Below are positions 1-3,000 of a stretch of 5,845 bases of DNA, one piece after another (position 1 is the first letter of the stretch; every line of letters starts with the position of its first letter). The DNA is from a virus (lineage: Duplodnaviria > Heunggongvirae > Uroviricota > Caudoviricetes): IMG/VR virus record IMGVR_UViG_2537562194_000017; one strand, given 5' to 3'. The position numbers were made by a program.

Positions 1-3000
1 CATACTGAGCAACGGGGCAAAATACAGCCCCACGACGTTTTCACCGGTGGATGCGCAGACGGTGGAACAACTGAAGATGACCGCTGAAATTGTCTGTTCG
101 GTGTTCCGTGTCCCGGCCTACAAGATTGGCGTTGGCCACCCGCCTTCCAGTGACAACGTGGAGGCGCTGGAGCAGCAGTATTATTCCCAGTGTCTGCAGA
201 CGCTGATTGAGTCCATTGAGCTGTTACTGGATGAGGCGCTGGAAACGGGGGAAAACGAGAGCACGGAGTTTGACGTCACCACGCTGCTGAGAATGGACAG
301 CGAACGGCGCATGAAAACACTGGGTGAATCGGTGAAAAATACGCTTCTCACGCCCAATGAGGCCCGTAAACGTGAGAACCTGCCGCCCCTTGCCGGCGGT
401 GATGCACTGTATCTTCAGCAGCAGAACTACAGTCTGGAGGCGCTGTCCCGTCGTGATGCCCGTGAAGATCCGTTCGCGTCGTCCGGGAAAAGAGTTTCAG
501 CCCAACTGCCTGACGGCGCATCTGACGGTAATAAGGCAATCAGTGAAACAGAGCATGATGCAGTGAAAGCGATGTTCAGGGGGATACTGAGAAAATGACG
601 GAACGGGAACTGTCCATTATTCGTGCACTGGGCGAAGAATTCTCCACGGTGCTGGCGGATTTACAGCGCACATTTGAGGGGAAGATGGCCGCGCAGGCAC
701 AAGCGTTTGAAGAGAAACTGGCTTCCCTGTCGGCGGTATTACAGAAGCATGTGACGGTGGATGAGGTACATCCGGTTCTGCAGGCGATGGTGGATGACGC
801 TGTGGGGACCATTCCGGTACCGCGTGATGGTCGTGATTATGATCCGGATGTACTGCAGCAGGCGGTGAATGATGCGGTTGCGAATATTCCGGTACCGGCG
901 GACGGCAAAAGTATTACCCCCGATGATGTGCGTCCGATGCTTGAGCAGATGGTGAAAGAGGCTGTAAGCCATATTCCTGTTCCGTGTGATGGTCGTGATT
1001 ACGATCCGGAAGTACTGAAGCAGGCGGTGAATGATGCGGTTGCGAATATTCCGGTACCGGCGGACGGCAAAAGTATTACCCCCGATGATGTGCGTCCGAT
1101 GCTTGAGCAGATGGTGAAAGAGGCGGTAAGCCATATTCCTGTTCCGCGTGATGGTCGTGATTACGATCCGGAAGTACTGCAGAAGGCGGTGAATGATGCG
1201 GTCGCGAATATTCCGGTACCGGCGGACGGCAAAAGTATTACCCCCGATGATGTGCGTCCGATGCTTGAGCAGATGGTGAAAGAGGCGGTAAGCCATATCC
1301 CTGTTCCGCGTGACGGTCGTGATTACGATCCGGAAGTACTGCAGAAGGCGGTGAATGATGCGGTCGCGAATATTCCGGTACCGGCGGACGGCAAAAGTAT
1401 TACCCCCGATGATGTGCGTCCGATGCTTGAACAGATGGTGAAAGAGGCGGTAAGCCATATTCCTGTTCCGCGTGATGGTCGTGACTATGATCCCGATGTT
1501 CTGCAGAAGGCTGTTCTGGATGCGGTGAGTGCCCTGCCGGCTCCGCAGGACGGGCGTGATGCCACGGCTCTGGAAATACTCCCCGCCATTGACGATCAAA
1601 AATCCTTTCCCCGGGGCACGTATGCCACACACCTGGGTGGACTCTGGCGGGCGTATGAAAAAACGCACGGGATGCGGGGATGGGAATGCCTGGTTGACGG
1701 GGTGGCGGATATCGACGTCAGCATGACGGATGAGCGGTTGTTCTCTGTGGTGATCCGGCAGAGCAGTGGCCAGTGTACGGAAAAAACATTTTCCCTGCCG
1801 GTGATGCTCTACCGTGGTGTGTTCAGAATCGGCGAAACTTACCACCCCGGCGATACGGTGACGTGGGGGGGCTCGCTGTGGCACTGCAACAGTATGACCG
1901 GTGATAATCCCGGAGAAGCTCATTCATCAGGCTGGACTCTGGCTGCAAAACGTGGGCGGGATGCAGGAGGTGGAAAGTGACAGCATTACTGACACTGGAA
2001 GAAATCAAGGCACATCTGCGTGTTGACCATGACGCGGATGATGAGATGCTGATGGACAAGGTTCGTCAGGCTACCGCCGTGCTGCTGGCCTACATCCAGG
2101 GCTGCCGGGATAAAGTGATTAGTGAGGACGGTGAGCTGATCCCTGGTGAGGCATTAACCCGGATGAAGGGGGCTGCCATGCGACTGACCGGGATGCTGTA
2201 CCGGAATCCGGATCTTGCTGAGCGGGAAGACCTCGTGCAGGGGGAACTGCCGTTTTCTGTTTCCGTGCTGATTTACGATTTGCGTTGTCCGACGGTGTTA
2301 TGAGGAGGGGGAATGGCAATATCTGCAGGTCGTCTGACACAGATGATAAGTGTTCTGAACCCGGTGTTAACCCGTAATGCTGCCGGAGAAATGACGGAAG
2401 AATGGGTGTCATGCGGGAAAATTCATGCGGATATCCGTGGCAGGAGCAGCCGGGAGCGGATGCAGTCCGGTGCGGAAATGGCGCAGGCGGAAATCCGCAT
2501 CTGGGTGCGCGGTCAGTCCGGCCGGGAAATCACGGCAGCGTCACGACTTCATGTGCTGAGTGGTCCATGGCGTGACCGGATCCTGAACGTTGTCGGGCTG
2601 CCCGTGCCGGATGCGACCGGCGGGCGTCTGGAAATTCTCTGTCGGCTGGGAGGGGAAAAATGATCGAAACCCTGCTGGATTTTTCGGGGCTGGAGGACAT
2701 CAGCCGCGATTTGCAGCTTCTGAGTGGTGCGGAAAATAACCGGGTGCTGCGTGAGGCAACCCGTGCGGGTGCGAATGTGCTGAAAGAAGAAGTGGTGTCA
2801 CGGGCACCGGTACGCAGGGGAAAACTGCGCCGCAATGTGGTGGTCCTTTCCCGGTGCTCCCGCGATGGCGGGATGGAATCCGGTGTCCATATCCGTGGTG
2901 TTAATCCGGACACCGGTAACAGCGATAACACCATGAAGGCGGATAACCCGCGCAATGCTTTCTACTGGCGGTTTGTGGAAATGGGGACCGTGAATATGCC

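Follow-up and report, generated by a model that had tools for sequence, protein, structure and literature searches.

What is encoded between the portal gene and the head-tail connector gene of a large group of proteobacterial phages: a protein in its own right, or the broken-off end of the portal? The locus that raises this question lies in a 5,845-nucleotide stretch of DNA (the whole stretch is called the window here) from a tailed virus of the class Caudoviricetes, IMG/VR record IMGVR_UViG_2537562194_000017. The gene in question, called X, occupies positions 595 to 1980 on the + strand, starts with ATG, and encodes an acidic protein of 461 amino acids (aa; isoelectric point (pI) 4.7) that is the counterpart of the open reading frame (ORF) 59 of phage BP-4795. 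The balance of the evidence tips towards X being a genuine separate gene for a portal-vertex accessory protein in one lineage of HK97-like head modules, whose order is TerL, prohead protease/major capsid protein (MCP), portal, X, adaptor Ad1, and head closure. X is classed accordingly with the portal-associated accessory head proteins. It is not a chance feature of one record: 1250 of 5426 complete E. coli genomes contain near-identical DNA (up to 98.3%), and the median carrier genome has five copies. Such DNA is also found in 93 phage records, mostly Stx1a-, Stx2c-, and Stx2a-converting phages.

X is tightly packed between its neighbours. Upstream lies the 3' part of an HK97-family portal gene (2–598, +; PF04860 with E=1.5e-22, phrog_2271/12), which runs off the start of the window and whose product ends in ...AVKAMFRGILRK; complete portals of this type have approximately 454–459 codons (locus L001, BP-4795). 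The portal stop codon (TGA, 596–598) and the start codon of X (ATG, 595–597) share the tetranucleotide ATGA at 595–598 (+), an arrangement of translational coupling. At the other end, the stop codon of X (TGA, 1978–1980) overlaps the GTG start (1977) of the connector gene as GTGA. The connector itself (1977–2303, +) is a gp6-like adaptor Ad1 of the Phage_connect_1 type (PF05135, phrog_40), and its start codon is ATG at the same position in at least one close relative (L008). The first-pass annotation of the window had given X this length and both overlaps, and the ORF coordinates confirm them.

The reference annotation presents a different picture, and the difference can be traced to a single nucleotide. 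Eleven nucleotides (nt) before the start of X, at 579–583 (+), there is a run of five G residues (G5), AGG GGG, which forms the Arg-Gly codons of the portal tail and is at the same time purine-rich and similar to a Shine-Dalgarno sequence. One added G in this run (G6) joins the portal and X in frame. The junction product of G6 is ...FRGDTEKMTERE, the fused proteins read ...AMFRGDTEKMTERE across the junction, and fused proteins in databases contain ...AVKAMFRGDTEKMTERELS..., against AMFRGILRK and a stop in the portal frame of the window and GDTEK-M in its X frame. An indel in the A-run before the ATG (A4 to A5) was also considered as the fusing event and was rejected, as the fused proteins place the indel in the G-run at 579–583. 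Many database proteins are such in-frame fusions; PHROG 2271 is an 859-position “portal protein” that spans both the portal and X. The Prokaryotic Genome Annotation Pipeline (PGAP) treats portal and X as a single entry, “phage portal protein, frameshifted”, and does so in the reference genome of O111 strain 11128 as well. The pair is flagged as a single “frameshifted” pseudogene wherever G5 is present, for example at L001 13234–15980 and L002 2234–4656.

Both states are abundant in E. coli. The run was counted in E. coli genomes using queries of 35–37 nt, built on this flanking sequence alone, with every 28-mer seed spanning the run. G5 was found at 708 places (367 genomes) and G6 at 1338 places (752 genomes), together with three cases of G4 and none of G7. 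In a sample of 65 junctions (62 IMG/VR viral contigs, the window, and two annotated genome loci), 42 had G5, 23 had G6, and no other run length occurred. The locus was also considered as a phase-variable one; the homopolymer lengths are not widely sampled in E. coli, where G5 and G6 alone are common. In the E. coli locus sample, G5 is carried on about 18 clusters of flanking haplotypes (17 of them exclusively) and G6 on six. The largest G6 cluster holds two G5 members that differ at 0–1 positions over 630 nt, and such a mixed cluster indicates that occasional recent switching has probably taken place.

These counts can be read in two directions. According to the PGAP annotation, the true gene is a portal of 800–915 aa with a C-terminal extension, and the window, having gone from G6 to G5, carries a pseudogene or truncated portal. 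This is what the label on the G5 copies and the 859-aa model of phrog_2271 say; in E. coli, fused copies outnumber split ones by about two to one, and the 49 G5 records that an exact-flank query matched in the phage collection are all prophage-derived. The more divergent relatives speak strongly for the opposite direction. In L079, whose C-terminal domain of X is 68% identical, and in Salmonella phage FSL SP-016 (in the 65–68% range), the portal ends in AMIRGFLTK and a stop, and the next gene starts with MNERELS and has the same ATGA overlap as the window. The junction in both is AGA GGA TTT CTT ACA AAA TGA and contains no G-run.

The same pattern extends much further. In 80 more distant viral contigs, the module is constant (TerL, protease-MCP, portal, X, connector, head closure); of the 69 distant viral loci in which a portal ORF immediately precedes X, 45 show a 4-nt portal/X overlap, as do BP-4795, FSL SP-016, and Lys8385Vzw, and the stop of X overlaps the connector start by 4 nt in most distant loci. 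The gene order is also the same at 66 loci in bacterial genomes of Gamma-, Beta-, and Alphaproteobacteria, including Pantoea, Erwinia, Citrobacter, Proteus, Morganella, Pseudomonas, Caballeronia, Paraburkholderia, Rhizobium, Mesorhizobium, Phyllobacterium, and Sphingomonas. Dozens of different portal sequences share the protein tail KAM[ILMV][RK]G[LFIM][LI][TA]K, directly followed by the stop. The [RK]-G codons of this tail are spelled AGAGGA, AAAGGA, or AGGGGG, each a purine-rich, Shine-Dalgarno-like motif about 11 nt before the start of X, and in comparative terms the E. coli G5 run is one spelling of this conserved motif. Because distant relatives without a G-run keep the split pair, the conserved tail, and the ATGA overlap, two coupled genes are the ancestral and normal state, and G6 is a derived +1 insertion.

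Standalone proteins also dominate the family: among the 150 best cluster representatives, only two or three exceed 600 aa, and the rest range from about 85 to 550 aa. One continuous portal-X gene occurs only in the E. coli G6 variants and a few rare others, such as P0144 and L230, and the window, like BP-4795, FSL SP-016, and Lys8385Vzw, has the split pair, which is also the arrangement of nearly all distant relatives.

Polymorphism within E. coli agrees with this direction. With codons anchored on the domain start, the ratio of nonsynonymous to synonymous polymorphism (pN/pS) of the C-terminal domain is 0.19 for 28 distinct G5 alleles and 0.14 for six G6 alleles; the N-terminal 77 codons gave values of 0.37 for 22 distinct G5 alleles and 0.32 for G6. 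X is intact in nearly all G5 loci. Judged by these ratios, X is under purifying selection in both the split and fused states, and the G5 alleles are the more diverse ones. A pseudogene would be hard to reconcile with such values, and the PGAP reading, to which we give hardly any credence, was rejected on comparative and selection evidence. The “frameshifted portal pseudogene” label is an artefact that arose because the fused variant served as the reference, and the names “portal protein”, “portal protein B”, and “hypothetical” come from annotation transfer and not from experiments. The gene model of the first-pass annotation, a separate gene coupled to both the portal and the connector, is right, more so than the reference annotation, and corresponds to the conserved ancestral arrangement of distant relatives.

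Named phages exist in both states. BP-4795, the exemplar of Marienburgvirus, has G5, with the portal as ORF58 and X as the 461-aa ORF59 (CAD88860, “hypothetical protein”); ORF59 is 92% identical to the X of the window over its full length, and its 4-nt overlap is likewise present. In phage 2851, the exemplar of Pankowvirus, the run is G6, and X is the C-terminal half of the 859-aa portal GP3 (CAQ82041). Strauch and co-workers are said to have described 2851 in 2008 as an infectious Stx2c phage. Lys8385Vzw has G5 and an X of 245 aa. This phage was induced, plaque-purified, and imaged as a siphovirus, and it lysogenized WG5, DH5alpha, and MG1655 (PMC6986202), so a split pair is found in an infectious phage, which again counts against the PGAP reading. 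A minority of its particles had an unusual form, with the tail joined to a second small (~30 nm) capsid, which is possibly unrelated to X (PMC6986202). Split and fused arrangements thus both occur in recognised phages, and the fusion is derived and tolerated.

Two records in this data set deserve separate mention. In L233 (vB_EcoS_phi330, 1269–4011), portal and X are annotated as three fragments despite G6, which suggests further homopolymer errors or real frameshifts elsewhere in the record, and it was not used as evidence. In L008 (2183–5696), the portal and the 5' part of X have given way to insertion sequences (ISs) of the IS3 family, and only the last repeats and the C-terminal domain are left; among the ISs, a 100-aa transposase-associated ORF occurs three times and a 272-aa one twice.

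A run of G residues at a gene junction also calls to mind programmed ribosomal frameshifting, by which one mRNA would give a short portal and a portal-X fusion, as in the G/GT tail chaperones. Either a -1 slip in the ribosomal P site on G GGG before the rare codon AUA (G5) or a +1 slip (G6) could be imagined. Rare codons, AUA and AGA, do follow the run, both products exist in nature as genomic variants, and the G/T genes of the window carry a classical A AAA AAG site. Nevertheless, the junction AGG GGG ATA contains no heptamer of the type X XXY YYZ, and no stimulatory structure turned up, although the region was not folded. The 4-nt overlap already accounts for coupled expression, and relatives with AGA GGA TTT, AAA GGA ATA, and similar junctions keep the gene pair in the absence of any slippery run. 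It was on account of these relatives that the mechanism was rejected, and its chances are negligible.

If X is a gene of its own, the next question concerns what kind of protein it encodes. Its product has three parts. The N-terminal helical region (aa 1–77; 595–825, +) begins with the conserved motif M[NT]ERELS[IL]I[KR] and is predicted by AlphaFold2 (AF2) to form a long helix at residues 3–52, with a predicted local distance difference test (pLDDT) score of approximately 90, followed by a helix at 55–72; a helical N-terminus of about 50 aa had been proposed from the sequence. The repeat region (aa 78–318; 826–1548, +; pI 4.4) consists of nine clear modules that alternate between 25 aa (DGRDYDPxVLxxAVNDAVANIPVPA) and 29 aa (DGKSITPDDVRPMLEQMVKEAVSHIPVPR). 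These correspond to four 54-aa double modules and one more; there is a degenerate module upstream, and a DGRD motif opens the C-terminal domain, so the earlier count of “about 11” modules was fair. At the DNA level, Tandem Repeats Finder reported an array of 4.3 copies of a 162-bp unit at 811–1511 (+), with 96% matches, no indels, and a score of 1269. The four 54-aa double modules encoded by 162-bp units, which had been noted before, were recovered, the four full units being pairwise 93.8–98.1% identical.

The repeat array is variable in length. The X ORFs measure 245, 299, 353, 407, 461, or 569 aa, a ladder with 54-aa steps, and the 94–98% identity of units inside one gene suggests that unequal recombination may be frequent. 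The copy number of the 162-bp unit differs even among otherwise near-identical prophages (loci L003–L082). The repeats also break draft assemblies, and many database proteins are “partial”. As to the fold, a beta-helical repeat region had been put forward for structure prediction, and neither it nor a solenoid is supported: in the AF2 model, each module forms one helix of 12–17 aa followed by a Pro-rich loop, with low confidence. Inspection of the X sequence in the window revealed no GXY periodicity. True collagen (GXY)n repeats are present in the family members L194, L201, L202, L230, and P0127, with rods of up to ~400 aa, and tail-fibre-type motifs occur in the relatives P0127, P0263, and P0176.

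The third part is a C-terminal all-beta domain. The globular domain proposed in the first-pass annotation exists, and only its size has to be corrected, as homology gives 143 aa (aa 319–461; 1549–1977, +) instead of ~120 aa. AF2 places the beta domain at residues 343–451, with a pLDDT of 88.9 when the C-terminal domain was modelled alone and ~97 within the full-length model, and the general architecture of a flexible repeat stalk with a globular tip agrees with the same prediction. A search with the 143 aa gave 4972 clusters (clustered at 50% identity) with E<=1e-3, of which 324 reached E<=1e-30, and the mean column identity over 16 diverse members is 61%. This tip is the most conserved part of X in hosts from E. 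coli to Rhizobium, across three proteobacterial classes. At its end lies a subdomain (aa ~410–452; 1822–1950, +) resembling carbohydrate-binding modules of families 5 and 12 (CBM5/12), that is, chitin-binding-domain-like; the PF02839 (CBM5/12) scores of 16.6 bits for X and 19.3 bits for the fused protein P0120 remain below the gathering cut-off of 26.2. Structural matches of the tip include chitin-binding modules, tail fibres, tailspikes, and collagen-repeat phage proteins, and no good structural match was obtained for the ~90-residue beta subdomain that precedes the CBM5/12-like end. A recurrent 405-aa allele has a 2-aa in-frame deletion in this domain (141 vs. 143 aa) and is found mostly in G6 (fused) copies (L047, L054, L056–L059, L061, L062, and L077).

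It is also instructive to consider what X is not. X alone has no PF04860 match, which is confined to the upstream ORF. In the fused protein P0120, the portal domain covers residues 54–382 with X after it, matches to portals in the PDB stop at residue ~420, and the AF2 model of X (helix, repeats, beta knob) contains no portal fold. X matches PF04233, the family of SPP1 gp7 and Mu F, in none of Pfam, PHROGs, and NCBIfam, and in these three and the PDB, it shows no homology to scaffolds, prohead proteases, or major capsid proteins, the families that could have contradicted the earlier view of X. The earlier statement that the family could not be recognised also stands, since X falls into no curated family in the local copies of Pfam-A and NCBIfam and has no solved relative in the PDB. 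Its homologues carry the precomputed Pfam accession PF28083, which is absent from the local Pfam copy. Weak Pfam and NCBIfam matches (TetR_C_35, FliG_N, DUF4244, Mre11, and others) were set aside, as no stretch passes alone and they look like repeat-driven noise. No paper describing X was found in the literature on BP-4795, FSL SP-016, PF28083, Sakai prophages, portal extensions, and phage 2851. The X family is therefore large, strictly syntenic, and without a characterised member, and the sequence itself has been in GenBank since the BP-4795 deposit.

Gene context indicates what role is left for such a protein. In NZ_CP077567, the genes downstream of stx1 are HNH, TerS, TerL, a 645-aa “major capsid protein”, a 73-aa ORF, portal, and connector. 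The 645-aa protein is a Peptidase_S78 prohead protease joined via a coiled-coil segment to an HK97 capsid domain. The capsid gene thus lies upstream of the portal, and X is not in the usual protease/capsid slot; since protease, scaffold-like, and capsid functions are already encoded upstream, X is an extra gene between the portal and adaptor. The conserved 73-aa ORF between the capsid and portal genes (L001 13067–13288) overlaps the portal start and has no match in Pfam or NCBIfam.

This context also bears on the idea that X acts only during assembly. Bound to the portal as a nucleator or scaffold-like tether, it would bring in the protease-MCP fusion when the procapsid is initiated and later be degraded by the S78 protease, so that it would be absent from mature virions. 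Like scaffolds, X is helical, acidic, Pro-rich, and flexible; it is co-inherited with one particular protease/MCP/portal set, its fusion to the interior end of the portal is tolerated, and the length of its spacer seems unimportant. However, the coiled coil between the protease and capsid domains of the MCP polyprotein could already be the scaffold, X has no homology to known scaffolds in Pfam or PHROGs, and a highly conserved beta domain with a CBM-like end, as well as collagen rods, is not scaffold-like. An assembly-only factor is thus improbable.

In our reading of X as a portal-vertex accessory protein, its stoichiometry would follow from its neighbours. Portal and adaptor are each present in 12 copies per virion. 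Because X is coupled by stop/start overlaps to both genes and a 1:1 fusion with the portal is viable, X may be made in an approximately 1:1 ratio with them, giving ~12 copies per particle. X would dock at the portal via its conserved N-terminal helix. The middle part would serve as a spacer or rod that is free to vary in length and chemistry (Pro-linked short helices here, collagen in relatives); collagen versions would imply trimeric rods, with four trimers per portal as one possibility. The C-terminal beta knob would bind a partner that stays the same from host to host; the candidates are another component of this head module and a conserved glycan, e.g., peptidoglycan.

The side of the portal on which X would be located is less certain. 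In every solved portal known to us (HK97, P22, SPP1, T4, phi29), the C-terminus lies in the crown and faces the capsid interior, and the fused form must for this reason put X inside the head. By analogy, free X may also sit on the inner side, on the portal crown, as an internal tether like the P22 portal barrel or SPP1 gp7, a placement to which we assign slightly less than an even chance. A bolder and more tentative extension, which we would regard as less likely than not, is that about twelve portal-anchored, length-variable fibres or tethers hang from the crown into the DNA-filled capsid and form a class of internal head structure that has not been described. Such fibres would be made of segmented helices or collagen triple helices and would end in a conserved, glycan-binding-like knob. 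Evolution would have two interchangeable ways of encoding it, as a polypeptide of its own or as an extension of the portal, with a single G in a tract resembling a ribosome-binding site as the toggle in E. coli.

Several features of X suit an external neck or collar fibre (whisker) or adhesin, and it was in this direction that the first-pass annotation leaned, with a capsid or neck fibre, decoration protein, or adhesin. Trimers of X would then attach by their N-terminal helices to the portal clip or the adaptor on the outside, and the CBM5/12-like knob would bind a surface glycan or manage side tail fibres, as T4 fibritin does. In G6 phages, the fused copy would be confined to the interior, leaving internally initiated X as the one active form, unless the phage did without X. 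The AF2 model, with its N-terminal anchor, segmented helical rod, and C-terminal beta knob, has the appearance of such a fibre. The true collagen rods in relatives, the tail-fibre-type motifs in P0127, P0263, and P0176, the structural matches of the tip listed above, and the coupling of X to the adaptor gene point the same way. A tip like the carbohydrate-binding modules at phage fibre ends, together with collagen in relatives, fits a fibre.

On the other hand, most copies in E. coli, and also that of phage 2851, are fused in frame to the interior-facing portal C-terminus, and this speaks against a simple external adhesin. Across three proteobacterial classes, no part of X is better conserved than the knob, unlike receptor-binding tips, and the electron microscopy description of Lys8385Vzw mentions no neck fibres (PMC6986202). 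The external fibre or adhesin is therefore one of two live possibilities and not the favoured one; we would put it at somewhat under one chance in three, with the portal-anchored internal tether remaining our preferred working picture.

The remainder of the window belongs to the same morphogenesis module, the head-to-tail segment of a long-tailed prophage of the BP-4795 type from Shiga toxin (Stx)-producing or enterohaemorrhagic E. coli (EHEC). The gene order is portal 3' part, X, gp6-like connector Ad1, head-closure protein, HK97 gp10-like protein, gp17-like tail terminator, major tail protein, tail chaperones G and T, and the start of the tape measure. The major tail protein (3514–4230) has a C-terminal Ig-like domain (Ig_2, I-set; aa ~150–235) that also matches Hoc-like decoration PHROGs. 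A slippery heptamer, A AAA AAG (-1), lies at 4601–4607 just before the stop of G (G 4236–4610; T ORF 4634–4915), and the -1 frame continues from it into the T ORF (KKVARPEIRF…), as is expected of a G/GT programmed frameshift. The tape-measure ORF (from 4967) contains an in-frame amber codon, TAG, at 5504–5506 (codon 180; …VITQFS, stop, ALAQGVLRGEEFNSVNE…), where the codon is CAG in 46 related loci. The amber may make the tail of this prophage copy defective, or it may be suppressible or due to a sequencing error. At 3477–3500 (+), after the tail-terminator gene, lies a terminator-like hairpin with a T-run, and another hairpin after gene T (4925–4950, called on the - strand) has a 9-bp stem with T-runs on both sides. 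The number of terminator-like hairpins in the window is not above the expectation from shuffled sequences.

The head module is among the commonest in prophages of Proteobacteria and, in E. coli, belongs to phages that carry genes for Shiga toxin and type III effectors. Even so, X, one of six conserved head/neck genes in the module, goes without an assigned role and is consistently misnamed. The “frameshifted portal” pseudogene flag is attached to more than 700 E. coli loci, and intact prophages can therefore look defective in integrity surveys. If X is indeed a fibre or tether of the portal vertex, it would add a component to the standard HK97-type parts list. Nature would then also have provided a paired system of split (BP-4795, Lys8385Vzw) and fused (2851) forms with copy-number ladders, which could reveal the role of portal C-terminal extensions in packaging or ejection, and the collagen-bearing relatives would offer an unusual example of collagen linked to a portal.

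Among known systems, there are partial parallels to X. T4 fibritin (wac), phi29 gp8.5, and the P68 head fibre have no sequence homology with X; to our knowledge, these proteins are external and are never fused to a portal C-terminus. The tip of X is similar to the ends of collagen-repeat phage proteins that carry ChiC_BD/CBM5_12 domains, at a level below the Pfam gathering threshold. In its genomic position, X resembles the minor head proteins SPP1 gp7 and Mu gpF (PF04233), which are encoded directly downstream of the portal, are present in low copy, are tied to the portal, and in some cases are fused to it. X, too, lies directly downstream of the portal in ~150 loci and has fusions in E. coli G6, P0144, and L230, but it lacks a PF04233 match, and its architecture, with repeats and a CBM-like knob, is entirely different. 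For the fused state, the closest likeness is the portal barrel of P22 gp1, which Tang and co-workers reportedly described in 2011 as a long helical C-terminal extension into the capsid, present in 12 copies and dispensable for the portal fold. X accompanies a portal of the HK97 family (PF04860) and not of the P22 family, with no sequence relation seen between the two; it is usually a separate polypeptide that continues into a Pro-rich or collagen rod and a beta knob, and its interior location is one that we infer. The G6-fused X is likewise a C-terminal extension of a portal, and it likewise starts with a helix, of 50 aa.

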